NCBI GenBank assembly: GCA_041748075.1
Contig: JBGTDX010000118.1
Coordinates: forward strand, 66,730-130,729
Direction of reading: 5' to 3'
Source: Thermoanaerobaculia bacterium
GTDB lineage: Bacteria > Acidobacteriota > Thermoanaerobaculia > Gp7-AA8
Length of the DNA: 64,000 nt
Shown one piece after another: positions 1 through 22,099 of the stretch (the stretch's first letter is position 1; the number at the start of each line of letters is the position of its first letter). The notes beneath the pieces are model-generated. The model was not told the DNA's origin and ran no database searches. It saw nothing but the letters and a program-made list of their open reading frames with translations. Made by a program: the position numbers and the translations under genes.

Positions 1-356
1 GCACCTCGTAGCGGCACGTCGATACCTGCGGCGATGTCGTCGTTCCGCACGCCGTCGCCATCGGTGTCGTCATAGATCGTGTAGACCCACTTCCCGTCGG
101 CCATGGTGAACTTCACGCCCGTATTGACGTCGCGGGCGATGGCTCTCGAGCGGGCGAAGTGAAGCGAGGCCGAGGCCTCCTGCGCCGCGGCGCGAAGAAC
201 GATGCTGCTCCGGACTGTCGAGAGTGCCGGGATCGACACGGCCACGAACAGCCCCATGAGCGACAGGACCACGAGAAGCTCGATGAGTGAGAAGCCGCGG
301 AAGCGGCCTCCCTCGTCAGGTGGCTTGAACAGGGAGGTGATCAGCGGTTTGTGCAT
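1..356 (-). CDS. Type IV pilin-like pseudopilin (GspH/FimT-like). The N-terminus lies inside the window and the C-terminus runs off the 5' edge.
   Basis: Reverse-complement translation from ATG about 356 reads MHKPLITSLFKPPDEGGRFRGFSLIELLVVLSLMGLFVAVSIPALSTVRSS... This has a class III prepilin signal (G|FSLIELL followed by a hydrophobic helix). The frame stays open to position 1, which is why the ORF track (it needs a stop) does not list it. It is divergent from pilD. Confidence 0.6.
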   Translation of the reverse strand, partial: MHKPLITSLFKPPDEGGRFRGFSLIELLVVLSLMGLFVAVSIPALSTVRSSIVLRAAAQEASASLHFARSRAIARDVNTGVKFTMADGKWVYTIYDDTDGDGVRNDDIAAGIDVPLRG

Positions 357-506
357 GCCGGCACGCAGTTGCAGGCGGCCGGCCTGTGGGAACGATCTCG
401 AGAACTGCTGAAAACAGGGGTGTTTACCTCCGTCGTGATCGTATGGGGCGTGTCAAAAACTCTTGCAGTGCCGCACGCCCGGCAAACGAATCTGCGAAAC
501 CGTGGT

Positions 507-530
507 TCCCCTCTCCCCGCGGGGGAGGGG
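507..530. repeat. Short GC palindrome ccctctccccgcgggggagggg (family R3), in the pilD divergent promoter region.
   Basis: Perfect inverted repeat seen directly. Related copies occur at 43646-43675 and 43841-43872. Confidence 0.6.
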
Positions 531-564
531 AAGAACCGAGCCCACGTCGTACAATCCCTGACGA

Positions 565-1368
565 ATGTCCGCACTGTTCGCCCTCTACGCCTTCGCCCTG
601 GGCGCAATCATCGGCAGCTTCCTCAACGTCGTCATCCACCGCTACCCACGCGAAGAGTCGATCGTCTTTCCGCCGAGCCGCTGCGGGTACTGTCAGGCGC
701 GCATCAAACCGTACGACAACATTCCCATCCTCAGCTATCTGATCCTCCTGGGCCGCTGCAGAAGTTGCGGCGTCGCGTTCGGCTCGAGATACGTGATGAT
801 CGAGCTGGCAAACGCGCTCTTCTACCTCGCGATCTTTTTTCACACCGGGGTTAGCCTCGCCTTCATCCCGCTCGCGGCCATCGTCTCGATGACGATCGTG
901 CTCATCTACATCGATCTCGACATCCAGATCCTCCCCGACGTCATCGATCTTCCTGGAATTCTGATCGGTCTTCTGATTGGATGGATGGGGCTCGGAACGC
1001 TCTATCCACAGCTCATCCTGGCAGTCGATCTGCTCGACTCGATCTTCGGCGCAGCATTCGGCGCCTCACTCCTCCTGGCGATCGGAATGGTGTACAAGCT
1101 TCTCCGGAAGATCGAGGGCATGGGACTCGGCGACGTGAAGATGCTCGCGATGATCGGGGCGGTCACCGGCTGGAGGGCCATCTTCCCGCTGCTGTTTCTC
1201 GCCTCGGTCGGAGGCGCGATCATCGGGTTGATCGTCGCGGCCCGGCAGCGCCACGAGAATCTTCAGTTCCCCATCCCGTTCGGGGTTTTTCTCGGTCTGG
1301 CCACGTTGGCCGTGATCTTCTTTGGAAATACACTCTTCACATGGTACGGATCACTTCTCGGCGGATGA
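565..1368 (+). CDS. pilD: Prepilin peptidase (A24 family, PilD/GspO).
   Basis: 267 aa: MSALFALYAFALGAIIGSFLNVVIHRYPREESIVFPPSRCGYCQARIKPYDNIPILSYL... with the Cys-rich zinc motif (CxxC...CxxC) and multiple TM helices typical of PilD. Confidence 0.9.
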   Translation: MSALFALYAFALGAIIGSFLNVVIHRYPREESIVFPPSRCGYCQARIKPYDNIPILSYLILLGRCRSCGVAFGSRYVMIELANALFYLAIFFHTGVSLAFIPLAAIVSMTIVLIYIDLDIQILPDVIDLPGILIGLLIGWMGLGTLYPQLILAVDLLDSIFGAAFGASLLLAIGMVYKLLRKIEGMGLGDVKMLAMIGAVTGWRAIFPLLFLASVGGAIIGLIVAARQRHENLQFPIPFGVFLGLATLAVIFFGNTLFTWYGSLLGG

Positions 1369-3044
1369 CCCCCGTAGGGTTCCGGCGGGACATCAAGTTC
1401 TTTCTCGCCTGCCTGGTGGGATTTCTCGTTTTCATCATTCTCACGCTGCTGGTCCTTCTTCAGTCCGTGACCGAGCGCGCAACCGAGCGGACTCTCGAGC
1501 AATGGCGGTTCGCGAGCGACGTTGCAGCCGCAGCCCTGAACCGCCTGCCGGAGAACGCGAATCGTTCCGAGATCGAGTCCCAGCTCATCTTCCTTCGCGG
1601 GCAGTACGACATCGCGACGATCACGCTCTTGATTCCCGGTGAGACTCAGCTCGTTTCCGGATATCCCGTCTCCGATCCGGGGTTTTCGGACATTCAGCGA
1701 ATGACCCGGCATGGCGAGGCGACGCTCAGCTTCGATCCCGGCGAGGTCATCGCCGCTCGCAGGACGTTTCTCTACACCGCCGGTATCTCCATCGCAGCAA
1801 CGATCCTCGGGACGATCCTTCTCTCGCTATACCTGCCCAGGATCGTCCGGCCGATTGAAAAAATGCTGGATGACGCGAGCGTACTCGGGGAGCGGGCGTC
1901 CGGTGTCGACGAAGCAAACTATCTGATCGACACCTTCCGCAAATCGATTCAGACGTTGAAGGATCAGGAGCACGAGCTCAAGCGACTCCACGAGCTGGAG
2001 AAGATCCGCGCGGACGATCTGCAGAGGATCACCGCGACGCTGACCCGAAGCCTGACCTCGGGGTTCATCGCAATCGACCAGCATGGGCGCGTCGTCGACA
2101 TGAACTCCGCGGCCCGCGACATCCTTCGACTGAATGAGATGCGCGATCCCGCAGGGCTCACCGTTCGCGACGCACTCGGCGAGTCCTCCTTCTCGAGGGA
2201 ACTGCAGAGCGCACTGGACGACGGCGTTCCCGTGTCACGTCAGGAAGTGACTCAGGAGGCGGGCGGCGAGACCGTCACCATCGGCCTGACTACAGTGCCC
2301 CTGACGAACGAGGAGTCGGAACTCCTCGGCGTGATCGCGCTGTTTGCAGACCTTACGCCGGTCCGCCAACTCGAGGCGCGTGTCCGCGAGATGCAGACAC
2401 TCGCAGACCTCGGTGAGATCTCCGCCGGCATCGCTCACGAGTTCCGTAACTCCCTCTCGACGATCCTCGGCTATCTCAAACTCGCCGGGCGCGAGCAATT
2501 ACCGGACGAAACGCAGAAGCGGCTCCGCCACGCGGAGGAAGAAGCGGAGCTCCTGTCCGAAGCGGTCGAAGGGCTTCTGAGCTTCGCCCGTCCGATGCAA
2601 ATGGAGTTTCGCGAAACGGATCTGGCAACGCTCGTGCGCGGCATTCTCGAGCGGTTCGAAGACCAGCACGACGGCATGGACATCGTCGCGCAACTCGAGG
2701 ATTCGAGCTTCGATGCGGATCCCATCCTGCTCTCGCGCGCCGTGGAGAACGTGATCCGCAACGCCATCGATGCGGTCCGTCAGAAAGGCGGCGGCAGGAT
2801 CACGATCACCCTCCGTTCTGATCCCGGGCCGGTGCTGACCATCGCCGATACCGGCGTCGGGTTCGAGCCCGAGGCCGCGACGCGTCTGATGCTGCCTTTC
2901 CAGTCCGACAAACCGGACGGCATGGGGCTGGGCCTCCCGCTGGCGCGGAAGATCGTGATGCTGCATGGTGGAAGTCTGCAGCTGACAGGGAAGCCTGGTG
3001 AGGGAGCGACGGTCGTGATCGAGTTTCCGGCAGGCTTCATTTAG
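1365..3044 (+). CDS. Sensor histidine kinase with two TM helices around a periplasmic segment, then PAS, HisKA and HATPase domains.
   Basis: ORF 981..3044 trimmed to the ATG at 1365, which overlaps the pilD stop as ATGA. H-box: EISAGIAHEFRNSLSTILGY. G-boxes: DTGVGF and GMGLGL. No response regulator is adjacent. Confidence 0.8.
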   Translation: MTPVGFRRDIKFFLACLVGFLVFIILTLLVLLQSVTERATERTLEQWRFASDVAAAALNRLPENANRSEIESQLIFLRGQYDIATITLLIPGETQLVSGYPVSDPGFSDIQRMTRHGEATLSFDPGEVIAARRTFLYTAGISIAATILGTILLSLYLPRIVRPIEKMLDDASVLGERASGVDEANYLIDTFRKSIQTLKDQEHELKRLHELEKIRADDLQRITATLTRSLTSGFIAIDQHGRVVDMNSAARDILRLNEMRDPAGLTVRDALGESSFSRELQSALDDGVPVSRQEVTQEAGGETVTIGLTTVPLTNEESELLGVIALFADLTPVRQLEARVREMQTLADLGEISAGIAHEFRNSLSTILGYLKLAGREQLPDETQKRLRHAEEEAELLSEAVEGLLSFARPMQMEFRETDLATLVRGILERFEDQHDGMDIVAQLEDSSFDADPILLSRAVENVIRNAIDAVRQKGGGRITITLRSDPGPVLTIADTGVGFEPEAATRLMLPFQSDKPDGMGLGLPLARKIVMLHGGSLQLTGKPGEGATVVIEFPAGFI

Positions 3045-3256: not shown

Positions 3257-3457
3257 CACCGGTACCGGAGGTTCATTAGAAGGTACCACCGCCCAGAACC
3301 CTGGAACGTCGCTCCGGCCGCACATGTGTTACTTTTTCTCCCATAAACGCCATCACGACTCGACGTCGTCGCTTGCAACATGAGTTCAAACATTGACAAC
3401 AATACACTTATCTTCCACAAACTCCATGGCATCCCGACTGCAATAGAGCAGCCCCAC

Positions 3458-3991
3458 ATGAATCGTCTAATCAGGTTTCACCGCCGGGATGCCCGCGGCT
3501 TCTCCCTCCCGGAGTTGCTCGTAGTGATTGCGATCATGGGACTGATCGTCATGGTGTCCGTTCCGAATTTCATCGCCTACTTCCAGTCGAACAAGGTCAA
3601 GACGTCGTTGCGGGTATTCAACACCGACGTCCGGGCTGCGCGGCAGCGAGCGGTAACGCGGAACAGCTTCACCAGAGTCACTTTCAGAACCGGCGTGGGA
3701 GCCAATCAGTATCGAGTGTTCGAGTCGCTCGATCGCGGAGCCACATGGGCAGTTGCGCCTTACATCTCGAGGGAGCTCGAAGAGCCGGTCTACTTCGAGA
3801 GCACCGGCTTCGGCGACACGGCGCCGGCCACTCCCGACACCGCCCCCGACATCGTCTTCCGCAACGATGGCGCCGTCCAGGATCATCCCGGTGGAACAGA
3901 CGATTACGTAGTCATCCGGACGACGCACACCATTCCGAGAAACGAATTCACGATACGAATCAGTGCGGCCGGCGCCGTGAGAACTGATTAG
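3458..3991 (+). CDS. Minor pseudopilin (GspH/FimT-like).
   Basis: Prepilin signal RDARG|FSLPELLVVIAIMGLIVMVSVP. ORF track frame 3380..3991. ATG 3458 gives a 14-aa leader; the in-frame ATG 3380 would give a 40-aa leader. Confidence 0.7.
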   Translation: MNRLIRFHRRDARGFSLPELLVVIAIMGLIVMVSVPNFIAYFQSNKVKTSLRVFNTDVRAARQRAVTRNSFTRVTFRTGVGANQYRVFESLDRGATWAVAPYISRELEEPVYFESTGFGDTAPATPDTAPDIVFRNDGAVQDHPGGTDDYVVIRTTHTIPRNEFTIRISAAGAVRTD

Positions 3992-4005: not shown

Positions 4006-4548
4006 ATGCGCTGCATAGTTGCCAGCTCACGCGGGAGTCACAGCGAACGGGGATTCAATCTCGTCGAAGTCATCATTGCCATGGCTCTGCTGGGAACCGT
4101 CCTTCTGGGAATCCTCTCGCTGTTCTTCTTCGGTCGCAACAACGTCTACAGCGGCAAACAGATGACGCATGCAGTCTCGGTCGCTACACATGTCCTCGAA
4201 GATCTTTCAGGGCTGACGTACACCCAGATCGAAGCGGCGATGGATTTCGAGATCGGAACCGACACACTTGCGAGTCATACGGTAAACGGCGTGACGTATG
4301 CCAGCGCACTGAGAAGAACCACAGACGCTCTCGGTGAAGACGCCGATCCTCCGAACTTCCTCGACAAGTGGAAGGCCGAGCTCGATACAAAAGTGTCCGA
4401 GGGTGCTGTGGACCTGATCTTCACGCCCGATCTCAGCGACCGGGTCCTGCGCATCGACGTGATCGTCACCTGGAAGGAACCGGGAAGGATCAGTGTCGGT
4501 GGGAACAAGCGTCAGATCATCATGGAAACGGCCAAGATCCGCCACTGA
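4006..4548 (+). CDS. Minor pseudopilin (PilV/GspI-like).
   Basis: MRCIVASSRGSHSERG|FNLVEVIIAMALLGTVLLG is a prepilin N-terminal motif. A GAGGAGA Shine-Dalgarno sits 6 nt upstream. Confidence 0.7.
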   Translation: MRCIVASSRGSHSERGFNLVEVIIAMALLGTVLLGILSLFFFGRNNVYSGKQMTHAVSVATHVLEDLSGLTYTQIEAAMDFEIGTDTLASHTVNGVTYASALRRTTDALGEDADPPNFLDKWKAELDTKVSEGAVDLIFTPDLSDRVLRIDVIVTWKEPGRISVGGNKRQIIMETAKIRH

Positions 4549-4564
4549 CCAGGGAGACATTCAG

Positions 4565-7500
4565 ATGCAGCGAACAGCACGTCGTTCCGAGCGGGGATTC
4601 AGCCTCGTCGAAGTCATCGTGGCCACCGCGATTTTCGTGGTCGTCCTCGTCGCAGCGCTGATGCTCTACGACCGGAGCACGAACACGTTCAGGCGAGGGA
4701 TCGAGGCTGCCGACACCCAGCAGAACACCCGAGTGTCGTTCGACAAGCTGCTCACCGATCTCCGCATGGCGGGATTCGATTACGATCGTGATGGGTTCCC
4801 GAGTGCCGCAGCAGGCACCGTCTGGACCGCCAGCCGCGTTTACGCGGTCGGGGACATCGTCGTACCCGTAGTCGTAAACGGCTTCAATTACCGCGCGACC
4901 ATAGGCGGAACCAGTGGCGGTTCGGAGCCGACCTGGCCGACCACCATCGGAGACCTTCGCGTGGATGGCGGGGTTACCTGGGAAACCATTGCCGGCACGA
5001 GCCAGGCGCAGCAGCCCGATGAACAGATCGAATACGTCGGTCCCTCGGCCATCACCATCCGCGCGAACTTCGACTACAACATCACTCCCAACCAGGGACG
5101 CGAACCGGCACTGGAATCCGCATCCTTTCCCGTCGTAACGACCGGAAACCACGAGATCGTCACCTACGCCCTCCGCTCAGCTGACGCCTCCAAGAACATA
5201 CAATCGGTTCAGTTCTTCGCCGACGTAAACGCTTCGGGTGCTCCGAGTCGTACCGCTTATCCCGGCGGAAGTTCCGAGCGGCAGATTACGATTCCAAACG
5301 TCGACCTCACGAACGCCAACCCACCGTATACACTCCACCGTTTCACACTCGCGGAGGACGGTTCGGTGGTCTCGAGCCCTGTAGCCGAAAATATCCGCAG
5401 CCTCAATTTCTTTTACTTTCAGGACACACAGGGGCTGACTCCTCTGGAAGACCTGTCGACCACCCCGGTGGCTTTCCCGCAGGGGAGCGCCACGCTCGGC
5501 GGAAGCGGGCAGTACAATCCTGCAAGCCCGGCGACGCTGATTCCGTGGCGGACGATGCGCTCGCGAGTCCGCTCGGTTCGGGTCGAGCTTGTGGGTATGT
5601 CGAGCCAGCCCGACCCGGCTTATACCGATACAGATCCCATCGTCGCGACGCGCAACTTCAGAAAATATCGCCTCGAAACTCTCATCGTCCCGCGCAACAT
5701 CGGAAAACGTGGCCTGCGCGAGTTCGACACGATGCCTCCAGGCGCGCCCGTACTCCAGTCGGCGTGCTTCGGACACTGCAGCATCGCGAAGCTCACCTGG
5801 CAGGCTCCGTCCACGGGAGGCGCGGTCGAACAGTACGCCATTCTTTACGACACCGACCTGGTCGGAGGTTTCGCGAGCAGTTTCATCGTCAGCGCGACCA
5901 CCTTTGCGTACGTAGTGCTGCCCGACCCCGCTGCCACGTACTACTTCGCCGTCCAGGCGCTCAACGGCTACGGCGCGTCGCCGGAGTCAAACGTACTCAG
6001 CGGCATACCGCTCAACCGGACCAAGCCAGACGCAATCGATGACATCACGGTGAACACCACAGCGAGCGGCATCCAGCTCAGTTGGCAGAAGCCTGTTACC
6101 AATGACGTCGGCGGGCTGACCTGCGTGCCGAGCGGCAGCCCTTCGGAAGAAATCCCAGCCCAGGAGAATATCCGTTACCGAATCTACCGCTCGATAGGAG
6201 ATGACATGTTCACGGCAGATTCGACCACCAGGATCTGGGACGAGAACTCCACCGGCGGCAACCTGGCCTACAACCCCGGAAGCGGAACGGTCACCTTCAC
6301 CGACAGCACGGCCGCCAACTGCGTGGACTACTACTATCGGATCGAAGCCCTCGATCGATGTGGCGACGACAGCAGCCTCAATGCCTCCGGATTCACCGGC
6401 GTGTCGGACATCTTCCCAGCTGCAGGATCTCCGGGAACATTTGCCCGCAACAACCCGAGCACTCCGCCGCAGCCCATGGCGCCTTCAACGCTCCAGGTAC
6501 TTTTGCCAGCGTCTAACTGTGATGCATTCAACTGCGAAATCTATCTCGAGTGGCCACGGGTGACCCTGGACATTTCCTCGAATCCTGTGGCGGTCGACGA
6601 GTACATCATCAGGCGTCGGAGACTGCTGGCGGGCGTTTATGTCGTGGAGCCGCCCGATGATGTTCCCTCGAGCGGCCACTCGGCGACGTCAGGCCCGACC
6701 ATAAGCGTCAGGCAGGATGTTCCCGCACCGGTTGCGGGAGTGTTCGACATGTACGAATACACCGTCTTCGCAACGAACTGCTCCACCTGGAGCGATCCCT
6801 CGCTCACGGTCAGGTTCCCCTGCGCCTGGTCCGGCGGATCGCCGGTGATCACCAACCAGCCGGTAGTCGGGGTATCCGGCGCCCTGGAAGGTAATGGGGA
6901 TGCCGGCTCGCCGTTCCTGGTGTTCGGCTCGCCCTCGTTCAGCATCAGCGGCATAACAAGCACGGTTAACGTGACAGCATTCGTCTATCTGGGGGGAACC
7001 CAGATTGAAGGGCCTCTCACGAGAACCGGCCCCGGCGCGCTGCCGATCTCCACCGATCCCATTGACGATGGGACGATCTACAGCCTGTCCCTGCAGTTCG
7101 TCGATTCCGGCGGTTGCTCGGTCAACCAGACGATCTATTTCGTCGGAAGCAGCAGCAACTGCTGCCTTGCAATTGAAAGCATCACGGGAGCTGTCGCATC
7201 CAGTGCCGAAGTCACAGTCACGTTCAGAAATCAGTGCTCTGCGAACGTGGCGATGAATGCGAGTGGGGCCGTTCGCATGCAGTGGACCGATGACCGATTC
7301 CCCAATCCATCTGTCCGGCTCGGCGGCATCACCTATCCCCGCGAAGGGGGCGGAACCATTGCCGGCACCGTCGCGACGAATACGGAGGGAAGCGTCGTTT
7401 CCCATAGCGCTCCGGGAGGAGCTGACGTGACCATCGAGGCGGGAACAACGTACGAGATCAAATTCTCGTTCACTAGAGACCTGAACGTCTCGACCTCTCC

Positions 7501-7588
7501 CATTCTGGATCTCTGCATCTCGTACGGTTCTTCTCCCATTACAGTGTGCAACATCATCAACGACGGCTTCGGGACTACGTGTCCGTAA
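4565..7588 (+). CDS. Giant minor pilin/pseudopilin (about 1007 aa; PilW/GspJ position) with fibronectin-III-like domains. Putative tip adhesin.
   Basis: ORF 4493..7588 trimmed to ATG 4565: MQRTARRSERG|FSLVEVIVATAIFVVVLVAALML. Internal W...Y...YY.A.N..G.S blocks (e.g. LTWQAPSTGGAVEQYAILYD...YYFAVQALNGYGAS and LSWQKPVTND...YYYRIEALDRCGD) look like FN3 domains. Confidence 0.7.
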   Translation: MQRTARRSERGFSLVEVIVATAIFVVVLVAALMLYDRSTNTFRRGIEAADTQQNTRVSFDKLLTDLRMAGFDYDRDGFPSAAAGTVWTASRVYAVGDIVVPVVVNGFNYRATIGGTSGGSEPTWPTTIGDLRVDGGVTWETIAGTSQAQQPDEQIEYVGPSAITIRANFDYNITPNQGREPALESASFPVVTTGNHEIVTYALRSADASKNIQSVQFFADVNASGAPSRTAYPGGSSERQITIPNVDLTNANPPYTLHRFTLAEDGSVVSSPVAENIRSLNFFYFQDTQGLTPLEDLSTTPVAFPQGSATLGGSGQYNPASPATLIPWRTMRSRVRSVRVELVGMSSQPDPAYTDTDPIVATRNFRKYRLETLIVPRNIGKRGLREFDTMPPGAPVLQSACFGHCSIAKLTWQAPSTGGAVEQYAILYDTDLVGGFASSFIVSATTFAYVVLPDPAATYYFAVQALNGYGASPESNVLSGIPLNRTKPDAIDDITVNTTASGIQLSWQKPVTNDVGGLTCVPSGSPSEEIPAQENIRYRIYRSIGDDMFTADSTTRIWDENSTGGNLAYNPGSGTVTFTDSTAANCVDYYYRIEALDRCGDDSSLNASGFTGVSDIFPAAGSPGTFARNNPSTPPQPMAPSTLQVLLPASNCDAFNCEIYLEWPRVTLDISSNPVAVDEYIIRRRRLLAGVYVVEPPDDVPSSGHSATSGPTISVRQDVPAPVAGVFDMYEYTVFATNCSTWSDPSLTVRFPCAWSGGSPVITNQPVVGVSGALEGNGDAGSPFLVFGSPSFSISGITSTVNVTAFVYLGGTQIEGPLTRTGPGALPISTDPIDDGTIYSLSLQFVDSGGCSVNQTIYFVGSSSNCCLAIESITGAVASSAEVTVTFRNQCSANVAMNASGAVRMQWTDDRFPNPSVRLGGITYPREGGGTIAGTVATNTEGSVVSHSAPGGADVTIEAGTTYEIKFSFTRDLNVSTSPILDLCISYGSSPITVCNIINDGFGTTCP

Positions 7589-7599
7589 GGAATGAAATC

Positions 7600-9955: not shown

Positions 9956-9968
9956 TGACGCACGAGGT

Positions 9969-10052
9969 GTCATCCTGAGCGAAGCGAAGGATCCCCCCAA
10001 GCCTTGCGATACTGCCAGTTGTAAGGGGATCCTTCGCTTCGCTCAGGATGAC
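9969..10052. repeat. Palindromic repeat element, family R1 copy a (gtcatcctgagcgaagcgaaggatcc ... ggatccttcgcttcgctcaggatgac).
   Basis: About 26-bp perfect arms around a about 32-nt loop. It makes spurious VILSEAKDP-type ORFs on both strands (ORF track 9708..10229 and 9970..10341). Confidence 0.8.
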
Positions 10053-10110
10053 ACTTGCTCCCTTGGCACCGCGCGAGTCTACGATGCGTGGAGCGCGCAC
10101 GATCCTCTCG

Positions 10111-10793: not shown

Positions 10794-10841
10794 GCCATAC
10801 CATATTGCATAGGTCTCAAACAGCCCGCTCAGGGGATTCTC

Positions 10842-11418: not shown

Positions 11419-11430
11419 GGTAATCGGTAT

Positions 11431-11649: not shown

Positions 11650-11855
11650 TTTTCAGTGTCCCACTCCGACTCGCTCACCGCGGGGAGGAATGGATCGATC
11701 AGGCGCACGGGCAGACCCCGAAGGGGCATCGTTGGCCGGGGAGCCTCGACAAGCTTCACCGTGACGTCGACCTGCTGGCCCTGCTTCACCGGCAGACCAT
11801 CGATCACGATCCGGCCATCCTTCAGAACGAGAACCCGCAGTTTCTTTGTCTTCAT
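11646..11855 (-). CDS. Putative antitoxin (VapB-like small DNA-binding protein) paired with the PIN gene.
   Basis: 69 aa: MKTKKLRVLVLKDGRIVIDGLPVKQGQQVDVTV. A 4-bp ATGA overlap with the downstream PIN ORF is typical of type II toxin-antitoxin coupling. Confidence 0.45.
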   Translation of the reverse strand: MKTKKLRVLVLKDGRIVIDGLPVKQGQQVDVTVKLVEAPRPTMPLRGLPVRLIDPFLPAVSESEWDTEK

Positions 11856-13378: not shown

Positions 13379-14992
<1,614 letters not shown>

Positions 14993-14994
14993 CT

Positions 14995-15894
14995 ATGGCC
15001 AGATCATTTCCACCAGACGTCATCATCTGCGATCAGGATTCGCTCATGTTCGCCCGTTTCGACGGCGGCAAGTCGATGCCCCGGATCGTGACGGCGAAGA
15101 CGTACGCGCTCGATGACGATGTGTTTGCACCGGGGATCGTGACGCCCGCTCTCGCGCGGCCGGAACAGCTCACCGCGGTTCTCGGGCGCATGAAAAAGGA
15201 GCAGGGACGGCTCGATCGCGTTTCGCTGCTGCTGCCCGATTCCTGGTTCCGCATCAACCTGATTGACATTCCGACGCTGCCGGAGAAAAAGGCGGAGGCG
15301 GATGAAGTCGTGCGCTGGTCTCTGAAGAAATCCACGCCGATCCGGCCTGAAGAGTTCCGCCTGGCCTATCAGACCGTGGACAAGACGAGCTCCGGATCAC
15401 GGGTGCTCGTGGTCGCCGCTCTCGAGAAGACGCTCGCCGGAATCGAAAAGGCATTCGCCGAGACACAGCTCACTCCGGTGCTCATCGAGCCGGTCGGGAT
15501 GAACATCTGGAACAGCATCGCAGTACGAGAGCAGCCGGCCAACGATGACAGAATCTTCTTCTATGTCCGGAATCGGGAATTCACCACCGCGGTCTTCAGG
15601 AATGGCACGCCGCTGTTCTTCCGTTCGCGAGTGATGAGCGACGACCGGACGCTCCTTCAGGAGATCCGGCTTTCAGCGTCGTATTTCAAATCGAATCTCG
15701 AGATCACGCACGTGGAAAAATGCTACGTGGCGGGCCAGCAGTTCAACGATCAGGTATCGTCCACGATCTCCGAGGAGCTCGGCGCGACGACCTCCAGAGT
15801 CACGCTCGACAGCTACGTCGAATCATCTCCCTCGGTTGATACGCGCGCGATCGAGGCCGAGCTCACAGCCTGCGCAGGAGTGTTCACCGCTTGA
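14995..15894 (+). CDS. PilM/GspL-like cytoplasmic assembly protein (actin-like fold).
   Basis: ORF 14764..15894 trimmed to ATG 14995, 3 nt after the pilB stop. Position and size (299 aa) are consistent with PilM. Similarity is modest. Confidence 0.6.
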   Translation: MARSFPPDVIICDQDSLMFARFDGGKSMPRIVTAKTYALDDDVFAPGIVTPALARPEQLTAVLGRMKKEQGRLDRVSLLLPDSWFRINLIDIPTLPEKKAEADEVVRWSLKKSTPIRPEEFRLAYQTVDKTSSGSRVLVVAALEKTLAGIEKAFAETQLTPVLIEPVGMNIWNSIAVREQPANDDRIFFYVRNREFTTAVFRNGTPLFFRSRVMSDDRTLLQEIRLSASYFKSNLEITHVEKCYVAGQQFNDQVSSTISEELGATTSRVTLDSYVESSPSVDTRAIEAELTACAGVFTA

Positions 15895-16469
15895 AGACGC
15901 TTCACCTGAATCTCGCTTCGCGCCCGTATCGCGATTACACGCCTGTCTATGCCGTGGCGATCGTGCTCGCTCTCGTGACGGGCTTTCTCATGATCAACAA
16001 CATCCAGACCGCGTACCGTTACTTCGTCAACACCGAGGAAACGCGCGGAGAGATCGCCCGGGTCGAGGCCGAGACTGCTGCCGAAACCCGCGCGGCGGAA
16101 ACGCTGGAGCGATCCGCAGAGGGGATCAATGTACGGGCGCTCGCGATGGAGACGGCGTACATCAACGCGCAGATCGCCGAGCGCGCGTTCTCCTGGAGCA
16201 ATCTTCTCGACAACATGGAAAGGGTACTTCCCCGCAACGTCCGGCTGATGACGCTCAATCCCGACATTCAACCCGACGGAGATGTGAGACTCACCATCAC
16301 CGCCAGAGCCAAGGGGAGCGACGGCATGGTCACCATGCTGCGGAATATGCTCGGCGATCCTCACTTCGCCGATCCGTTCCCGGGAACCGACTCTCAGAAT
16401 GATGACGGCTCCTACAGCTTCAGTCTTTCGACGACCTATCGTCCGGATCCGCGGGGGCTGACGCGATGA
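15891..16469 (+). CDS. PilN-like (bitopic, N-terminal LNLASRP motif then a TM helix).
   Basis: MKTLHLNLASRPYRDYTPVYAVAIVLALVTGFLMINN. TTG start overlaps the upstream stop. Confidence 0.7.
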   Translation: MKTLHLNLASRPYRDYTPVYAVAIVLALVTGFLMINNIQTAYRYFVNTEETRGEIARVEAETAAETRAAETLERSAEGINVRALAMETAYINAQIAERAFSWSNLLDNMERVLPRNVRLMTLNPDIQPDGDVRLTITARAKGSDGMVTMLRNMLGDPHFADPFPGTDSQNDDGSYSFSLSTTYRPDPRGLTR

Positions 16470-17056
16470 TCTGGCGCGAGAAAAGGAGCCTGCTGATTGT
16501 TCTGGGCGTGCTGCTTGCGATCAATGTGGCATTCTTCCTGACATACAGGGTTCGATACCAGCAGAGGATCCAGGCGCTCGACGTGACGCTCGATCAGGCG
16601 AACGCGGCCCTGGAAGCCGCCCGCAGCCGGAAGGCGGCCGCAGAGCAGACTCTCACGGGTTACAAGTCGACGACCGCCGACATTCAGAGGATCTACAACG
16701 AAGTCTGGTCCACGCCGCAACGGCGGCTCACGTCCATGATCCTGGAGATTCGCGACCTGGAAAATCGCAGCAGAATGGTGCCGCGCTCCACGAGCTTCAC
16801 GCAGCAGGTCGAGAAGAAAGAATTCGGAACGCGGGCCATGACGATGAACTTCATGGTCCGGGGCACCTATGCACAGGTGCGCCAGTTCATCAACCTGCTC
16901 GAGTTGTCCCAGAACTTTGTGGTGATCGATCAGATCATGCTGGCAGACCCGACCGATGAAACCCAGCTCCTGAATCTGAACATTCAGATCAAGACACTCT
17001 TCCACGAGCCACTCGATCCGTCAGAGCAGTCGGCGCGGCGCGGAGGAACCTCCTGA
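16466..17056 (+). CDS. PilO-like protein (TM helix plus coiled coil).
   Basis: MIWREKRSLLIVLGVLLAINVAFFL followed by a coiled-coil region. 4-bp overlap with PilN. Confidence 0.65.
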   Translation: MIWREKRSLLIVLGVLLAINVAFFLTYRVRYQQRIQALDVTLDQANAALEAARSRKAAAEQTLTGYKSTTADIQRIYNEVWSTPQRRLTSMILEIRDLENRSRMVPRSTSFTQQVEKKEFGTRAMTMNFMVRGTYAQVRQFINLLELSQNFVVIDQIMLADPTDETQLLNLNIQIKTLFHEPLDPSEQSARRGGTS

Positions 17057-17736
17057 TGGACTGGTCGAACTGGAAGACCTGGCTCCTGCTCAGCGGCGTT
17101 GTGCTCGCCCTGTTCGCGATCTATGTCTTCGCGTCTCCCGACGCTCCCCTGCAGTTGCAGAATGAGCCCGAGGCCGTGCGTCCCGTTGCCGCGTCGCGGC
17201 AGGTCGCGGGCGGGGCAACGCGCTCGATTGCGCCTCCGGGCGTGGAACCGGTGCGCATCGATCTGCTCGAGCCGGCCAGCGGAAGCTTCAGCAGCGACCG
17301 CAACCTGTTCCGTTATGTAGAACCGCCTCCGCCTCCTCCCGCTCCAACACCCAGACCTCCCGCTCCCCCGCCGGATCGCGACAAGGACGGCATTCCAGAC
17401 TTCCAGGACAATTGTCCCGATGTATACAACCCGGACCAGGCGGACATCGATCGCAATGGCGTAGGTGATGCATGTCAGGAGGGGCCTATCGTTCCTCCAC
17501 CGCCGCCGCCGCCGCAACCGCCGGCGTTCAACTACACTTACATGGGAAGCTTCGGGACGCCCGCGCGGCCCATCGCGGCATTCTCGCGCGACGGACAGAT
17601 CGTCAACGTGAGGGTGGGCGAGACCTTCGGCGGACAATTCATCCTCCGGAACATAGGGATCGAGTCGGTGGACATCGGGTTCGTCGGATTTCCGCCGGAT
17701 GCGCGAAAGAGAGTCGCCGTCGGAACGCCTCCGTGA
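17056..17736 (+). CDS. PilP/GspC-like protein carrying a thrombospondin type-3 (Ca-binding) repeat and polyproline tracts.
   Basis: N-terminal TM helix. PPPPPPAPTPRPPAPPP, then DKDGIPDFQDNCPDVYNPDQADIDRNGVGDAC (a TSP3 / OmpA-N-like DxDxDGxxDxxD motif), then PPPPPPPQPP and a C-terminal beta-rich domain. Confidence 0.55.
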   Translation: MDWSNWKTWLLLSGVVLALFAIYVFASPDAPLQLQNEPEAVRPVAASRQVAGGATRSIAPPGVEPVRIDLLEPASGSFSSDRNLFRYVEPPPPPPAPTPRPPAPPPDRDKDGIPDFQDNCPDVYNPDQADIDRNGVGDACQEGPIVPPPPPPPQPPAFNYTYMGSFGTPARPIAAFSRDGQIVNVRVGETFGGQFILRNIGIESVDIGFVGFPPDARKRVAVGTPP

Positions 17737-17804
17737 CGTTTCGTCACGCTTGAGCGTCTGAGCTGTTATAGCCGAGCCACATGATCGATCGAGAGAAAAC
17801 ATTC

Positions 17805-20252
17805 ATGAACCGAAACAGACTGAAAGTCGCAACGACGCTACTTCTGCTGCTGCCTCTGCTTTCGTGTACGAGCTTCCGCTCGTATCAGAGCGCGAAAGAC
17901 TTCGAAGAGCAGGGCAAGTGGGACGAGGCGATCGTCGAATACCAGAAGGCACTCGAGGTCGATCCCAACAACGTCCGCTACAAAATGGCGCTCGACAGGA
18001 GCAAGCTGGAAGCTTCGCGCGCACACTTCGAGAAGGGCAAATCGCTCCGCGCGGCTGCAATCGAAGCGCGAAACCGGGGAGAGGCTGCGCGAGCGCTGCA
18101 GCTCAACGAGCTCGCGCTGGTCGAGTTCGAGCTCGTCGTCAGACTGGATTCCACAAACCAGTTTGCCGCGGTCGAGTATGCGAAAGTCGTCTCCGCGATT
18201 CAGGAAGCAACGGCCGCAGCAAACGGTCCGACCTTCGAAGAGCGCAAGCGCGCGGTCGTCACCAAGGCGCAGCCGCCACAACTCAACCCAACCTCGCTCG
18301 AGCCGATCTCACTGTCGTTCCCCCGCCCCACTCCAATCAAGGACATCTACCGTTCCCTCGGCAATGCGTTCGGCATCAACATCATCTTCGATCAGGGGGT
18401 CAAGGATGAAGAGCGCATCTCGATCGAGCTGCGGGACGTCACCGCGCAGCAGGCGCTCGAGCGCGTCATGCAGGCCGGCAATCAGTTCTACAAGGTCCTC
18501 GACGAGAAGACGCTCATCGTCATCCCCGACACACCACAGACCCGGCGTGACTACGAAGATCTCGTCATCCGTACGTTCTACCTTTCCAACGGAGATGCCG
18601 AGCAGGTGACCAACGTCGTCAGGACGATGATCGAAGCACGGAACGTATTTCCGCTCAAAGCGCTCAACGCGATCACGATCCGCGACACCGCGGACAAAGT
18701 GCGGATCGCAGAGAAGATCATCGAAGCAAACGACAAGGCGCGTGCAGAAGTCGTCGTGCAGGTCGAGCTTCTGCAGGTCGACGCCCGCAAGCTGCGCGAC
18801 ATCGGCCTCAAACTCGGCGCCTACAGCACGAGTGGCGCGTTGACCGACGCGGCCGGCGGCACGATCGGAAGCCTCCCGTACGGGGAGCTGGGCAACATCG
18901 CGCTGAACGATTTCAACTTCACGATTCCCACGCTCAGCTATACGCTCCTGAAGAACAACACCGACGCGCGGCTTCTCGCACGGCCGCAGCTGCGGATCTC
19001 CGAGGGTGAGGACGCAACGCTGCACATCGGCCAGAAACAGCCCATTCCCGTCTCGACGCTCTTCACGAACGTCGGCGTCGGCGGCGGATTCAACCAGGGT
19101 CCCATCACCTCGTTCCAGTACCAGGACGTAGGAATCAAGATCGCGATCACGCCGCGCGTCCATCACAACCGCGAAGTCTCGTTGAAGCTCACCGTCGAGG
19201 TGTCGAACATCGCGGGATTCGTTCCAGGCGGCGGAGAAAACTCTCCCGATCAGCCGATCATCGGAACCCGCACCATCCAGTCGACCATCCGACTCAAGGA
19301 CGGTGAGACGAACCTTCTCGCAGGCCTGATCCGGGAAGACGACTCGATCACCAAAGACGACATCCCCTTCCTGTCTGACCTTCCGGTCATCGGACGGCTG
19401 TTCAGCAGGGAACAGAACAACGTAGCGACCACGGACGTGGTCCTCACCATGACCCCGCACATCATCCGCATCCCCGACATCACGGACGAGGATCTCGCGC
19501 CGATGTGGGTCGGAACGACGAACAATCTGACCTTCCGCGGGGTTTCGCCGCGGCTCGAGTCAAACGTTCAGGCGGATCCGTTCAACAACGTGCCCCGCAC
19601 GACCACCGCGACACAGGAGAACCCGCCGCCGTCGCAGGAGTTCTTCGCCCCGGGCCAGGTGCCGGCGACGCAGCCTCCGCCCTCATCACCCGTTCCACCC
19701 GCATCCGGACCGAGCGACGTCTTCCGCCAGCAGCCGCAGCCACCGCCTCCCGGAGGCGGAGCCAATGAGCCGCAGAATCCAGGTGTTCAACCGCCGCCGC
19801 CGGGAGCGTCGTCGATGAACCAAGAAGACTACCGGCTCAAATTCGCCCCGCGAATCGCTCCGCAGCCGTCGAGAATCGCGCTCGGTCCCGGCGAAGAAAA
19901 GGTCTGGTCGATCGTTGCGATGGATGTAGCGGAGCTTGCGATCCCGCAGATGGTGCTGCACTACGACCCGCTCGCGATGGACATCGCTGGCTTTTCGCTG
20001 GGCACGGCACTCGAGATCAACCCTGAAGTTCCGCCGGTCGTATCGATCGACCGGGCGAATGGAACGATTCGCATCAGCTCGTCCGACGGCAGCATGCTCC
20101 AGTTCCGCTCCGGCGGTGAGGTCGTCGCCTTCCGGGTGCGGGGCGGCGTAACAGGCGACACGATGCTCGTGATCGAACCGCTCGCGTTCTCGCAACGCAA
20201 CGGCGAGCGCGTCGACGTTGCCGTCGCCGGCGGCTCGGCCCGGGTGGAGTAA
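17805..20252 (+). CDS. Secretin (PilQ/GspD family) lipoprotein with an N-terminal TPR-like segment and a about 260-aa C-terminal extension.
   Basis: Lipobox LLLLLPLLSC. Secretin core LLARPQLRISEGEDATLHIGQKQPIP...IIGTRTIQSTIRLKDGETNLLAGLI...DIPFLSDLPVIGRLFS...VVLTMTPHIIR. The Pro-rich linker and extra beta domain that follow are detailed in the secretin finding. Confidence 0.85.
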   Translation: MNRNRLKVATTLLLLLPLLSCTSFRSYQSAKDFEEQGKWDEAIVEYQKALEVDPNNVRYKMALDRSKLEASRAHFEKGKSLRAAAIEARNRGEAARALQLNELALVEFELVVRLDSTNQFAAVEYAKVVSAIQEATAAANGPTFEERKRAVVTKAQPPQLNPTSLEPISLSFPRPTPIKDIYRSLGNAFGINIIFDQGVKDEERISIELRDVTAQQALERVMQAGNQFYKVLDEKTLIVIPDTPQTRRDYEDLVIRTFYLSNGDAEQVTNVVRTMIEARNVFPLKALNAITIRDTADKVRIAEKIIEANDKARAEVVVQVELLQVDARKLRDIGLKLGAYSTSGALTDAAGGTIGSLPYGELGNIALNDFNFTIPTLSYTLLKNNTDARLLARPQLRISEGEDATLHIGQKQPIPVSTLFTNVGVGGGFNQGPITSFQYQDVGIKIAITPRVHHNREVSLKLTVEVSNIAGFVPGGGENSPDQPIIGTRTIQSTIRLKDGETNLLAGLIREDDSITKDDIPFLSDLPVIGRLFSREQNNVATTDVVLTMTPHIIRIPDITDEDLAPMWVGTTNNLTFRGVSPRLESNVQADPFNNVPRTTTATQENPPPSQEFFAPGQVPATQPPPSSPVPPASGPSDVFRQQPQPPPPGGGANEPQNPGVQPPPPGASSMNQEDYRLKFAPRIAPQPSRIALGPGEEKVWSIVAMDVAELAIPQMVLHYDPLAMDIAGFSLGTALEINPEVPPVVSIDRANGTIRISSSDGSMLQFRSGGEVVAFRVRGGVTGDTMLVIEPLAFSQRNGERVDVAVAGGSARVE

Positions 20253-20263
20253 CCAGCCAGCTC

Positions 20264-20737
20264 ATGTTCCGAAAGGTTAACGGAGAAAACGGATTCACAG
20301 TCGCCGAGCTCATTACGGTCGTGGCAATCATCGGCCTGCTCGCGGGGATGGCGATTCCGGTCGCAAAGTTCGGATTCCAGAGGCAGAAGGAGATCGAGCT
20401 CCGGAACAGACTTCGCAAGATCACCGATGCGATCGACCGCTACCACGACCTGCGGGTCAAGGGACTGATCAAAGAGCAGGTAACCCTCGGACAGGGCGAG
20501 TATCCGAAAGATCTTCAGCAGCTTGTCGAAGGCGTCGAGTTGATGGACGGAAAGAAAGTAAAGTTCCTGCGCGAGCGCGATCTGATCGACCCGATGACCG
20601 GCAGAAAAGAATGGTTCACCAGATCGAATACCGACGACTTCGATTCCATGAGCTCCGACAACAACAACGTCTTCGAAGTGCGATCGACCTCGACGAAACT
20701 CTCGCTGGACGGCAAGACGCGGTACAACGAATGGTGA
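20264..20737 (+). CDS. GspG/PulG-like type IV pilin (pilin 1).
   Basis: MFRKVNGENG|FTVAELITVVAIIGLLAGMAIPV is a canonical 10-aa leader plus N-methyl-Phe helix. Confidence 0.75.
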   Translation: MFRKVNGENGFTVAELITVVAIIGLLAGMAIPVAKFGFQRQKEIELRNRLRKITDAIDRYHDLRVKGLIKEQVTLGQGEYPKDLQQLVEGVELMDGKKVKFLRERDLIDPMTGRKEWFTRSNTDDFDSMSSDNNNVFEVRSTSTKLSLDGKTRYNEW

Positions 20738-20742
20738 AACTG

Positions 20743-21324
20743 ATGCCTGAAACTCGACGTGACGGTTGTGGGTTGTGGGTTGTGGGTTGTGGGACCGCCC
20801 GGACCCCACACAAACCCCAACTCACAACTCACAACTCACAACTCACAACCGGCCGGGCGGCGGCACCCACAACCCACAACCCACAACCCACAACCGGTCG
20901 GGCGGCCGGCTTCACCCTCATCGAGCTTCTCGTGGTCGTCACCATCGTCGGACTGCTCGCGGGCATCGCCGTCGTCAACGTCCTCGGGGCGCAGCGGAAG
21001 GCGGCGGAGAACGTGCTGAAAGCGGATCTCGCCCTGATGCGTCAGGGCATCGACAACTTCTACGCCGACAAACAGCGGTATCCCTCATCGCTCGAAGAGC
21101 TCGTCGAGGCGAAGTACATGCGCAGGATCCCCGTCGATCCGATCACGAAATCGGCCGACACATGGATCCCTGTCACCGAGGAAGTCGAGTTCGATGGAGG
21201 CGGCTTCGGGGGCAGTTTCGGCAGTGATTTCGATTATGACGCGCCCACGGGCCCCGGCATCGCCGACGTGAAGAGCGGCGCCGAGGGAGAAACCCTCGAT
21301 GGCGTGCCGTACGGGGAACTGTAA
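20743..21324 (+). CDS. GspG-like pseudopilin (pilin 2) with an unusually long, repeat-encoded leader. Start uncertain (ATG 20731 or 20743, or TTG/GTG 20770/20779).
   Basis: ORF track frame 20611..21324. Mature start ...TTGRAAG|FTLIELLVVVTIVGLLAGIAV at nt about 20908. There is no start codon between the repeat hairpin and the cleavage site, so the leader (about 40-56 aa) reads ...TTHNSQLTT...PTTHNPQPTT through the heptamer arrays. Confidence 0.55.
   Translation: MPETRRDGCGLWVVGCGTARTPHKPQLTTHNSQLTTGRAAAPTTHNPQPTTGRAAGFTLIELLVVVTIVGLLAGIAVVNVLGAQRKAAENVLKADLALMRQGIDNFYADKQRYPSSLEELVEAKYMRRIPVDPITKSADTWIPVTEEVEFDGGGFGGSFGSDFDYDAPTGPGIADVKSGAEGETLDGVPYGEL
20765..20894. repeat. Inverted arrays of heptanucleotide tandem repeats: (GTTGTGG)x4 ... 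(AACTCAC)x4 ... (CCCACAA)x4, forming an imperfect about 40-bp stem hairpin.
   Basis: Arrays seen at 20765-20792, 20819-20846 and 20866-20893. The flanking gaccgcccggacc / ggccgggcggc are also complementary. The whole structure is in-frame inside the leader of pilin 2. Confidence 0.9.
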
Positions 21325-21332
21325 GGTTTAGA

Positions 21333-21477
21333 GAACGGAATGTTGAATGTTGAATGTTGAATGTTGAATGAGCCCGCTTTCAAAGATTCTCGCGTGTGAC
21401 GAATGTTATGGATGCCCGCAGAAAAAACCTGCGCGGACCCATTCAACATTCAACATTCAACATTCAACATTCCGTTC
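21333..21477. repeat. Perfect 38-bp inverted repeat built from (ATGTTGA)x4+ATG and (TCAACAT)x4, separated by a 69-nt loop.
   Basis: gaacggaATGTTGAATGTTGAATGTTGAATGTTGAATG (21333-21370) is exactly complementary to CATTCAACATTCAACATTCAACATTCAACATtccgttc (21440-21477). The only usable start codon of pilin 3 (21368) is the last ATG of the left arm. Confidence 0.95.
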
Positions 21478-22099
21478 TAAAAATGTAAGAAATCAACAAG
21501 GCTTTACCTTAGCCTCCCTCCTCGTCATCCTGACCGTGATGTCGGTCATCCTCGCCTTCTCCGTCCCGCGCATGTGGTCCGACGTCATGCGAAGGGAGCG
21601 GGAGCAGCAGGCGGTCTGGGCGATGAAGCAGTACGCGCGCGCGATCACCGAGTATCAGAAAAAGCGCCGCGAGCTGCCGACGAAACTCGAGCAGCTCGAA
21701 GAGCAGACCGAGCCGCGAGTCATCCGCTCGCTCTATCCCAATCCATTCAGCGGAGAGCTCGACTGGGTTCCCGTGCCGCCGAGCACCGCCGTCCAGGTGC
21801 CCGGCCAGCCCGGCGCCCCTGGTGCGGGTCTTCCGACGCCGACGCCCGGATTGTTCCCTTCACCGTCGCCATCCCAGCCCGGGCTCAACCCGGGTACCGG
21901 ACTTCAGGGCGAATACTCCGGACCGATCGGCGGGGTCCGCCTCCCGCTGACGGGGCCGAGCATGATCGTTCTCAATGGTCAGGACCGGTACGAGAACTGG
22001 GTCTACACGATCACGGAGCTGGCGCAGGAGCAGAGTGGCGGTCCCGTCCAGGATCCGACGCGGGCGGCTCCGATTACACCGGGAAAGCCTAACCCATAA
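21368..22099 (+). CDS. GspG-like pseudopilin (pilin 3) with a Pro/Gly-rich C-terminal region. Its start codon lies inside the hairpin arm.
   Basis: MSPLSKILACDECYGCPQKKPARTHSTFNIQHSTFRSKNVRNQQG|FTLASLLVILTVMSVILAFSVP. The 45-aa leader is translated through the hairpin loop and right arm. Confidence 0.55.
   Translation: MSPLSKILACDECYGCPQKKPARTHSTFNIQHSTFRSKNVRNQQGFTLASLLVILTVMSVILAFSVPRMWSDVMRREREQQAVWAMKQYARAITEYQKKRRELPTKLEQLEEQTEPRVIRSLYPNPFSGELDWVPVPPSTAVQVPGQPGAPGAGLPTPTPGLFPSPSPSQPGLNPGTGLQGEYSGPIGGVRLPLTGPSMIVLNGQDRYENWVYTITELAQEQSGGPVQDPTRAAPITPGKPNP

Follow-up and report, generated by a model that had tools for sequence, protein, structure and literature searches.

What kind of machine is encoded by the type IV filament genes at the left end of a 64-kb stretch of contig JBGTDX010000118.1, from a Thermoanaerobaculia bacterium? 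The whole stretch, which has 61% G+C, is called the window here. A preliminary description made from its letters had taken positions 1-22099 as a single hybrid, perhaps undescribed, machine that combines features of a type II secretion system (T2SS) and a type IV pilus. We find that the ten genes at 12163-22099, the core of this region, probably encode a Pul/OxpG-type atypical ('unorthodox') T2SS. We file the core there because its gene order, the match of its second pilin to the secretion pseudopilin OxpG, and earlier descriptions of such clusters all agree. The cluster is real and non-canonical; its architecture, barely characterised, has been described before, which makes the locus modest as a discovery.

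The core cluster is neither a canonical T2SS nor a canonical pilus

We read gene content from a listing of open reading frames (ORFs) together with Pfam matches, and used the curated equivalog and subfamily cut-offs of NCBIfam as a yardstick. All of the genes named in the preliminary description are present in the order it gave, with several starts corrected to positions downstream of the longest ORF (~3458, ~4565, ~7600 and 14995). The core runs from platform and ATPase through PilM-like, PilN-like, PilO-like and GspC/PilP-like proteins to a secretin and three short N_methyl pilins. It is densely packed: neighbouring genes overlap or sit a few bases apart. Under the names used for the Geobacteraceae Pul cluster, its genes are the following.

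12163..13371, plus strand: PulF, inner-membrane platform (Pfam T2SSF, 174.8 bits)
13379..14992, plus strand: PulE, assembly ATPase (Pfam T2SSE, 437 bits; MshEN, 66 bits)
14995..15894, plus strand: PulM, free-standing PilM-like actin-fold protein of 299 aa (no Pfam match; fold confirmed by structure)
15891..16469, plus strand: PulN, PilN-like bitopic protein (Pfam PilN, 23.9 bits)
16466..17056, plus strand: PulO, PilO-like bitopic protein (PilO, 21.0 bits; gathering cut-off 22)
17056..17736, plus strand: PulP, with a transmembrane helix, Pro-rich linker, TSP3 repeats, second Pro-rich linker and C-terminal GspC/PilP HR domain
17781..20252, plus strand: PulQ, lipoprotein secretin with TPR, N0/STN, Secretin_N and Secretin domains, a Pro-rich linker and a cohesin-like domain (Pfam)
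20264..20737, plus strand: G1, pilin in the PulG position (Pfam N_methyl)
~20731..21324, plus strand: G2, pilin matching OxpG (T2SSG, 18.8 bits), with its cleavage-site Gly at 20908 and a long leader containing a heptamer hairpin
21368..22099, plus strand: G3, pilin in the TklG position (N_methyl, 21.3 bits)

No core protein passes any NCBIfam cut-off for a T2SS or a type IVa pilus (T4aP). The best NCBIfam matches of the ATPase, platform, secretin, G2 and G3 are Gsp models, and every one of them falls short. PulF scores 296 bits against the 424 set for GspF and 275 against 700 for Myxococcus-type PilC; PulE scores 541 against 630 for GspE and 531 against 676 for PilB; PulQ scores 149 against 351 for GspD and 105 against 284 for PilQ. 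Even the best-scoring pilin, G2, reaches 52.8 bits where GspG has a cut-off of 88.85, and the top match of G1 is Myxococcus-type PilA, again sub-threshold. The mature forms of G1 and G2 are short (~130-150 aa), and GspG is the best full-length NCBIfam match of both G2 and G3.

The proteins between motor and secretin were placed by profile comparison and structure. PulN and PulO align with the canonical PilN and PilO encoded elsewhere in the window (hhalign P 8e-6 and 2.8e-4). The PulN family consensus has a conserved N-terminal HLNLAxRPYRDY motif, which resembles the INLLP-type PilM-binding peptide of PilN. In PulP, dockerin-like TSP3 calcium-binding repeats occupy residues ~105-141. The PulP family gave no hhalign match to the window's canonical PilP, and its identity was settled by structure prediction, in which the C-terminal domain is nearest the GspC HR domain; the protein has no PDZ domain. 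PulQ has the lipobox LLSC, read from the translation, a TPR region (TPR_11, 32.8 bits) and, at residues ~690-823, a cohesin-type domain that Pfam Cohesin matches weakly (18 bits). Pfam found no AMIN domains in it.

A second cluster in the same window provides a direct comparison. At 47217-52834 on the minus strand lies a canonical pilMNOPQ set whose PilM (252 bits, cut-off 133) and AMIN-domain PilQ (354 bits, cut-off 284) pass, and whose PilP scores 30 bits in Pfam. Because all core components miss the NCBIfam cut-offs and this second set passes, the core is neither a canonical T2SS nor a canonical T4aP, and the separation of the two clusters made in the preliminary description stands. Their M, N and O proteins are only remotely related (profile P 1e-4 to 1e-6). 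No pilB, pilT, pilC or pilA lies near the second cluster, which is flanked by relA/spoT (53607-55778) and the gene for an IPT/TIG surface protein (44529-46574).

The core shares with the Gsp T2SS of E. coli, Vibrio and Klebsiella a GspE/F-family motor and platform, a GspC-like HR domain, a secretin without AMIN, short GspG-like pilins and the lack of a retraction ATPase. It differs in having PilM, PilN and PilO in the place of GspL and GspM, which are absent from the core, in lacking a PDZ domain in the GspC-like protein, in missing the equivalog cut-offs, and in the TPR and cohesin domains at the two ends of its secretin. Its order, F-E-...-D-G, also departs from the Gsp order C-D-E-F-G-H-I-J-K-L-M of E. 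coli. With the T4aP (PilBCMNOPQ) it has in common the PilM-PilN-PilO-PilP alignment subcomplex, a feature of both T4aP and the Pul type that does not discriminate between them. It is set apart from T4aP by the lack of AMIN domains and of PilT at the locus, by short pseudopilin-type subunits, by scores below the PilB and PilQ cut-offs, and by having all of its genes in one locus with F and E leading.

Several observations of the preliminary description thus hold. The platform gene does precede the ATPase gene, and tblastn detected no second T2SSE/PilT-family ATPase, and hence no pilT, within the 64-kb window. The hybrid composition is likewise genuine, with short GspG-like pilins and no PilT on one side and free-standing PilM, PilN and PilO and a GspC/PilP-like protein on the other.

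The gene order is conserved across Thermoanaerobaculia

Using the secretin as query against one genome per GTDB species, we obtained 458 relatives and fetched the best 80 loci (L001-L080, 1.32 Mb). Nearly all of these best 80 are labelled Thermoanaerobaculia or Acidobacteriota; the best secretin matches come from metagenome-assembled genomes of Thermoanaerobaculia, the closest (L061) being 92% identical. The order F-E-M-N-O-P-secretin-G1-G2-G3 is invariant in the 80 loci wherever the contig reaches, and the same gene order was found in about 55-77 related Thermoanaerobaculia species. Because the ten-gene core is syntenic in essentially all 80 loci, the arrangement is far beyond chance. Across the Thermoanaerobaculia loci the ATPase is 77-86% and the secretin 51-63% identical, and PulF is 61-72% identical in 55 loci. 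Every Thermoanaerobaculia PulP homologue in our alignment invariably has the TSP3 insert.

Synteny extends beyond the last pilin gene, which is followed in 65 of the 80 loci by a gene for an M16-family peptidase (22266-23600 in the window), and then usually by an L,D-transpeptidase-like gene and recN (to 26898 in the window). recN lies 3 kb downstream of the core in the window and likewise in 47 loci. A single locus among the 80, from Acidobacteria gp7 AA10 (L078:630-4328, minus strand), has two PilT/PilU-like ATPase genes on the strand opposite to pulF, 2-3 kb upstream of it.

The same architecture occurs in Proteobacteria and Geobacteraceae

A translated search of plasmids and chromids returned as top matches ATPases of the 'GspE/PulE family' from Ralstonia solanacearum megaplasmids and from Paraburkholderia chromids (49-50% identity), and relatives of G1 occur on 127 plasmid or chromid records from nine genera. 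We compared the window with three such loci, on a Paraburkholderia chromid (L081), a Ralstonia megaplasmid (L082) and an Aliiroseovarius plasmid (L083). All three have the order F, E, four small hypotheticals, a ~760-aa TPR secretin and three prepilin genes, and the Aliiroseovarius cluster has an additional A24 peptidase in front. Identity between the window and these clusters is 49-50% for the ATPase, 27-31% for the secretin, 36-38% for G1 and ~40% for G2.

The pilins correspond one to one and in order to the three pilins (p1, p2, p3) of the Paraburkholderia and Ralstonia loci, with hhalign P from 2e-9 to 4e-29. G1 matches the first pilin after the secretin (P 5e-23 in Ralstonia, 6e-21 in Paraburkholderia), G2 the second (P ~1e-28) and G3 the third (P 7e-13 and 2e-9, respectively). 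Profiles also match PulN to the second hypothetical and the PulP C-terminal domain to the fourth (P ~1e-7). For PulM, hhalign gave no significant match to the first hypothetical of Ralstonia or Paraburkholderia, where the equivalents are too diverged for a profile match, and the correspondence is by position only. The secretins follow a common plan in the window, Ralstonia and Paraburkholderia: lipobox, TPR, N0/STN, Secretin_N, Secretin, low-complexity linker and C-terminal cohesin. The Cohesin score falls from 81 bits in Ralstonia to 41.6 in Paraburkholderia and 18 in the window, and the C-terminal domains are homologous (hhalign P 2.4e-5).

There are also differences. The proteobacterial clusters carry a true GspG gene in addition, their PulP equivalent is without TSP3, and their only pilin genes are of the G type or the GspH family, with no four-gene GspH-K-like minor set. 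They reside on plasmids and chromids, whereas the window's cluster is chromosomal and vertically conserved across the class. Two features of the Thermoanaerobaculia clusters have no counterpart in these three loci: the TSP3 repeats inserted in PulP, and a minor-pilin operon with giant subunits that is frequently linked to the core. The preliminary description had counted accessory domains among the oddities of the locus; this holds for the TSP3 repeats and not for the TPR and cohesin domains of the secretin, which are hallmarks of the family.

The Ralstonia solanacearum 'unorthodox T2SS' has this same architecture, and Ralstonia carries an orthodox Gsp cluster besides it (PMC5080846). Another parallel in gene order is the Geobacteraceae 'Pul' cluster, given as pulF-pulE-pulM-pulN-pulO-pulP-pulQ-pulG-oxpG in the Pelobacter carbinolicus genome paper (PMC3543383, Table S4). 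There PulQ is annotated as a 'secretin lipoprotein', and tklG, the third pseudopilin, lies elsewhere in Pelobacter. Geobacteraceae Pul and the window thus agree in gene order, component set, number of pseudopilins and lipoprotein secretin, and the suggestion that the locus might be undescribed has to be dropped. In Geobacter sulfurreducens the Pul genes span GSU1776-GSU1784; PulE is GSU1783 and OxpG is GSU1776, seven genes apart as the Pul order predicts. GspE and PilB are encoded separately, by GSU0328 and GSU1491, and an orthodox Gsp cluster is also present.

Our sequence comparison with Geobacter covered OxpG, whose sequence was taken from a preprint supplement. BLASTP aligned G2 with OxpG (GSU1776) from end to end at 41% identity (E 9e-33), and G1 with OxpG at only 31%. 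G2 and OxpG also have similar matches to Pfam T2SSG, both sub-threshold, at 18.8 and 17.2 bits. These results are consistent with orthology of G2 and OxpG.

The surroundings are alike as well. Aklujkar et al. (PMC3543383) note that pul clusters sit by genes for the cell envelope and cell division and for DNA uptake and metabolism, and both the Geobacteraceae and the window clusters adjoin cell-envelope and DNA-metabolism housekeeping genes. The window differs from Geobacteraceae Pul in the TSP3 insert of PulP, in the adjacency of its three pilin genes, and in the four-gene minor-pilin operon and pilD upstream, the pilin content of the Geobacteraceae being known from gene names. According to the genome paper, which cites Mehta et al. 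2006 on a type II secretion system termed 'atypical', Pul and not Gsp is necessary for secretion of the multicopper protein OmpB (PMC3543383). No counterpart of this Geobacter cargo was identified in the window.

The type IV filament reference table of Denise et al. 2019 (PMC6668835) places the Mehta 2006 validation on the gspN/M/L/K genes of G. sulfurreducens. OxpG is GSU1776, in the Pul cluster, and the oxpG validation looks to have been mis-assigned to the orthodox Gsp cluster near GSU0328. Since it sits on Gsp genes and not on the oxpG locus, the Pul type may lack an experimental anchor in that scheme; the only such anchor of the Pul type may be mis-filed in the standard table.

A probable secretion pseudopilus and its alternatives

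We placed the ATPase in a neighbour-joining tree of 117 sequences and 387 columns, built from 101 representatives at 50% clustering plus references: E. coli GspE, EtpE and HofB, Vibrio GspE, Geobacter and Myxococcus PilB, and Thermus PilF. The window joins its Thermoanaerobaculia orthologues with a bootstrap of 100 and a few further representatives, one of them a cluster from candidate division NC10, with 83-98. It groups with Ralstonia, Paraburkholderia and Aliiroseovarius, apart from GspE (100) and from Geobacter/Myxococcus PilB (100), at deep bootstraps of 0-3. For the ten nearest representatives, cluster records pointed to no taxon other than NC10. A protein search with the ATPase returned only orthologues of >82% identity with generic names, and no classified references.

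If the core is a Pul-type secretion system, it most likely works as follows. The prepilin peptidase (565-1368) would remove the leaders of the three short pilins, and PulE, acting on the PulF platform, would polymerise the OxpG/PulG-type subunits into a short periplasmic pseudopilus. PulE would be held by the cytoplasmic protein PulM, itself gripping the N-terminus of PulN, and by PulN and PulO as a pair. PulP, with its anchor in the inner membrane, would cross the periplasm and dock its HR domain on the N0 domain of PulQ, coupling motor to channel. The growing pseudopilus would then push folded periplasmic proteins out through PulQ, with no retraction ATPase involved. We infer the contacts between proteins from the structures of PilM-PilN and GspC-GspD, which models of these proteins match, and the secretion function from the Geobacter oxpG mutant as reported second-hand. 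In Thermoanaerobaculia the dockerin-like TSP3 repeats of PulP could conceivably bind the secretin cohesin and form a calcium-dependent clamp between the two membranes; in Ralstonia, the cohesin domain is present without TSP3 repeats.

Several points weigh against this assignment. The secretion role depends on a single mutant phenotype from another phylum, reported through papers that cite Mehta et al. 2006. For G. sulfurreducens, we deduced the order of the genes from the spacing of locus tags and from the Pelobacter table rather than from DNA. No candidate cargo was identified. In pairwise comparison PulE is slightly nearer to PilB structures (428 bits) than to Vibrio GspE (360 bits), and the deep nodes of the tree cannot place the ATPase family relative to GspE or PilB. 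Finally, the giant fn3-bearing minor pilins encoded next door would fit an adhesive fibre.

The last of these points leads to the most serious alternative, a non-retractile T4aP-like surface pilus for adhesion or aggregation, with the giant fn3 and PilX-like pilins as tip adhesins. Such a pilus would account for the higher score of the ATPase against PilB structures, for an alignment complex of the PilM/N/O/P type with a true PilM fold, for the name PilQ that some annotations give the secretin, and for the minor-pilin genes that 15 of 43 loci have immediately upstream, on the same strand. It would sit badly with the full-length match of G2 to a secretion pseudopilin, with the shortness of G1 and G2 and the GspG affinity of G2 and G3 (G1 alone leaning, sub-threshold, to Myxococcus-type PilA), and with the absence of PilT from the window and of AMIN from the secretin. 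The window, moreover, already holds a complete canonical pilMNOPQ. We regard a surface pilus as unlikely.

An ordinary Gsp-type T2SS that looks odd through Acidobacteriota divergence is less plausible still. The Gsp models are indeed the best NCBIfam matches of the ATPase, platform, secretin, G2 and G3, and GspC has the HR domain nearest to that of PulP; yet all of these scores are sub-equivalog, PulP lacks a PDZ domain, the gene order is not that of Gsp, and the defining GspL and GspM are missing. Geobacter and Ralstonia, in addition, each carry an orthodox Gsp cluster besides the Pul type.

An MSH pilus was rejected on gene order, which is mshIJKLMNEGF... in MSH systems, and on the MshL score of the secretin (89 bits, cut-off 250); the TPR region is fused to the secretin and is not a separate MshN. 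A competence or DNA-uptake pseudopilus, to which we give, together with an MSH-like pilus, the same very low probability as to an ordinary Gsp system, could point to the DNA uptake and metabolism genes placed near pul clusters by Aklujkar et al., to recN downstream of the core and to a weak ComP_DUS match of OxpG in Pfam (17.9 bits, below cut-off), but the recN neighbourhood is shared housekeeping synteny and no comEA, comEC or dprA is among the annotated ORFs of the window, whose annotation is partial.

With the Pul/OxpG-type T2SS as the preferred reading, a wider proposal can be put forward tentatively: that clusters of this type form an ancient lineage of their own within the type IV filament superfamily, with a T4aP-style PilMNOP core and a secretion pseudopilus, perhaps overlooked by the reference classification. 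We hold this to be possible and, on balance, doubtful. Relatives of the Pul type were found in Acidobacteriota, Betaproteobacteria, Alphaproteobacteria and, for the ATPase, NC10; the Desulfuromonadales are added from the literature. As a natural intermediate between a pilus and a secretion system, the Pul type bears on the origin of T2SS from T4aP.

Thermoanaerobaculia are widespread in soil, permafrost and sediment and are known almost wholly from metagenome-assembled genomes. Judging from the 458 related genomic stretches, this machine is probably a main route of protein export in the class. Connecting it with Geobacter Pul/OxpG and with the unorthodox system of Ralstonia assigns a concrete, testable role to hundreds of genes now called 'hypothetical' or 'GspE/PulE family'.

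The upstream minor pilins and an inserted island

The region to the left of the core contains the following genes.

3..356, minus strand: GspH/FimT-like minor pseudopilin, N-terminal 118 aa, cut by the left edge of the window (N_methyl, 26.9 bits; GspH, 23.5 bits)
565..1368, plus strand: prepilin peptidase of the PilD/GspO family (Pfam A24_N_bact, 108.4 bits; Peptidase_A24, 55 bits)
~1347..3044, plus strand: membrane sensor histidine kinase, PAS-HisKA-HATPase_c (Pfam; best NCBIfam match AtoS-like, 217 bits, below cut-off)
3380..3991, likely start ~3458, plus strand: GspH/FimU-like minor pilin (N_methyl, 27.6 bits; GspH, 26.1 bits)
4006..4548, plus strand: PilV/GspI-like minor pilin (N_methyl, 21.8 bits; weak PilV and XpsI matches below cut-off)
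4493..7588, likely start ~4565, plus strand: giant fn3 minor pilin in the PilW/GspJ position, ~1007 aa (N_methyl, 28.8 bits; fn3, 31.3 bits)
7546..9801, likely start ~7600, plus strand: giant PilX_N protein in the PilX/GspK position, ~733 aa (PilX_N, 30.7 bits)

We counted linkage of minor pilins to the core over 43 related loci, on the same strand and within ~4 kb upstream of pulF. Prepilin-like genes are there in 15 of the 43, and the remaining 28 have nothing pilin-like within that distance. Homologues of the 3-356 pseudopilin lie upstream of pulF, on its strand, in eight related loci. The fn3 pilin, whose longest ORF is 1031 aa, has homologues upstream of the PilX-like gene in L007, L055 and L020, and in L005, L007, L016, L020 and L055 the PilX-like homologue ends 165-460 nt before pulF. 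The four minor pseudopilins of the preliminary description are therefore present, and their tie to the core is less certain than it had supposed. Because their operon adjoins the core in only 15 of 43 loci, treating 1-22099 as one machine is uncertain. The operon at 3380-9801 may give a tip or priming complex to the core machine, to the separate T4aP or to both; between the two machines we see roughly even odds. The sensor kinase is linked to the pilin genes by position only.

Between the PilX-like gene and pulF lies an island at 10239..11855 that is not part of the machine (Pfam and ORFs, mixed strands).

10239-10793, plus strand: Uma2 nuclease
10842-11360, minus strand: MazF
11179-11418, minus strand: MazE
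11431-11649, minus strand: PIN fragment
11646-11855, minus strand: small ORF

The island is absent from the related loci, including those listed above in which the PilX-like gene ends close to pulF. Direct repeats of ~95-115 nt, 67-79% identical, occur at 9867-9931, 10089-10182 and 11919-12012. Because these repeats bracket the island and relatives are without it, we read it as a local insertion into what used to be the intergenic stretch separating the PilX-like gene from pulF. The toxin-antitoxin genes seen in the preliminary description are thus there; as a functional part of the locus they were rejected.

Inverted repeats, heptamer hairpins and other observations

A perfect 30-nt inverted repeat with a 28-nt loop comes after the PilX-like gene's stop codon.

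9967..10054: inverted repeat, GTGTCATCCTGAGCGAAGCGAAGGATCCCC followed by its reverse complement

A second copy lies at ~22110-22190, 3' of the stop of the last pilin, and a half-copy at 58571. The 30-nt repeat has five matches in the window, where 0.15 would be expected, and it translates as 'SEAKDPP...ILRFAQDD' in spurious ORFs. It looks like a repetitive extragenic palindromic (REP) or terminator element marking both operon ends. Scans for sigma-70 promoters and terminators around the operon ends gave nothing above background, and Rfam and tRNA scans of the window gave no matches.

Arrays of seven-base repeats, detected with Tandem Repeats Finder (TRF), pair to form hairpins between the pilin genes.

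20756..20903, plus strand: hairpin between G1 and G2, in which (GGTTGTG)x4.3 pairs with (ACCCACA)x4.4 around a loop of (CAACTCA)x4.6
21330..21478, plus strand: hairpin between G2 and G3, in which (GAATGTT)x4.7 pairs with (CATTCAA)x4.7

The RNA folds at -87.7 kcal/mol (z -7.5) for the first hairpin and -79.5 kcal/mol (z -14) for the second. Seven is the commonest period of tandem repeats across the 80 loci (194 arrays); 120 of these arrays form 60 complementary pairs in 37 heptamer classes, and 60 of the arrays are located between G1 and G3, an enrichment between pilin genes. Close relatives differ in the sequence of the arms and retain their complementarity: in the 92%-identical relative L061, the arms of the G1/G2 hairpin use another heptamer and are still complementary. 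Examples among the 80 loci are at L061:1825-2028 and L020:13034-13117.

The hairpins may extend into coding sequence. In the window, G2 has no in-frame start codon between its hairpin and the cleavage site. Of 20 cases, 16 have a 3' arm that stops 2-12 codons short of the cleavage-site glycine and no in-frame start codon beyond the arm, so that the arm appears to be translated within a leader peptide of unusual length. Because seven is not a multiple of three, gaining or losing a single unit would alter the reading frame of such a leader. The heptamers could thus possibly serve in phase variation or translational control of the pseudopilins. Comparable elements, tandem heptanucleotide repeats in four or five copies and for the most part paired, have been annotated in Geobacter metallireducens as putatively regulatory (PMC2700814).

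Elsewhere in the window, a 908-aa ORF at 59036-61762 (minus strand) joins a response-regulator receiver and a Ser/Thr protein kinase to a C-terminal TonB_C domain, an unusual combination.

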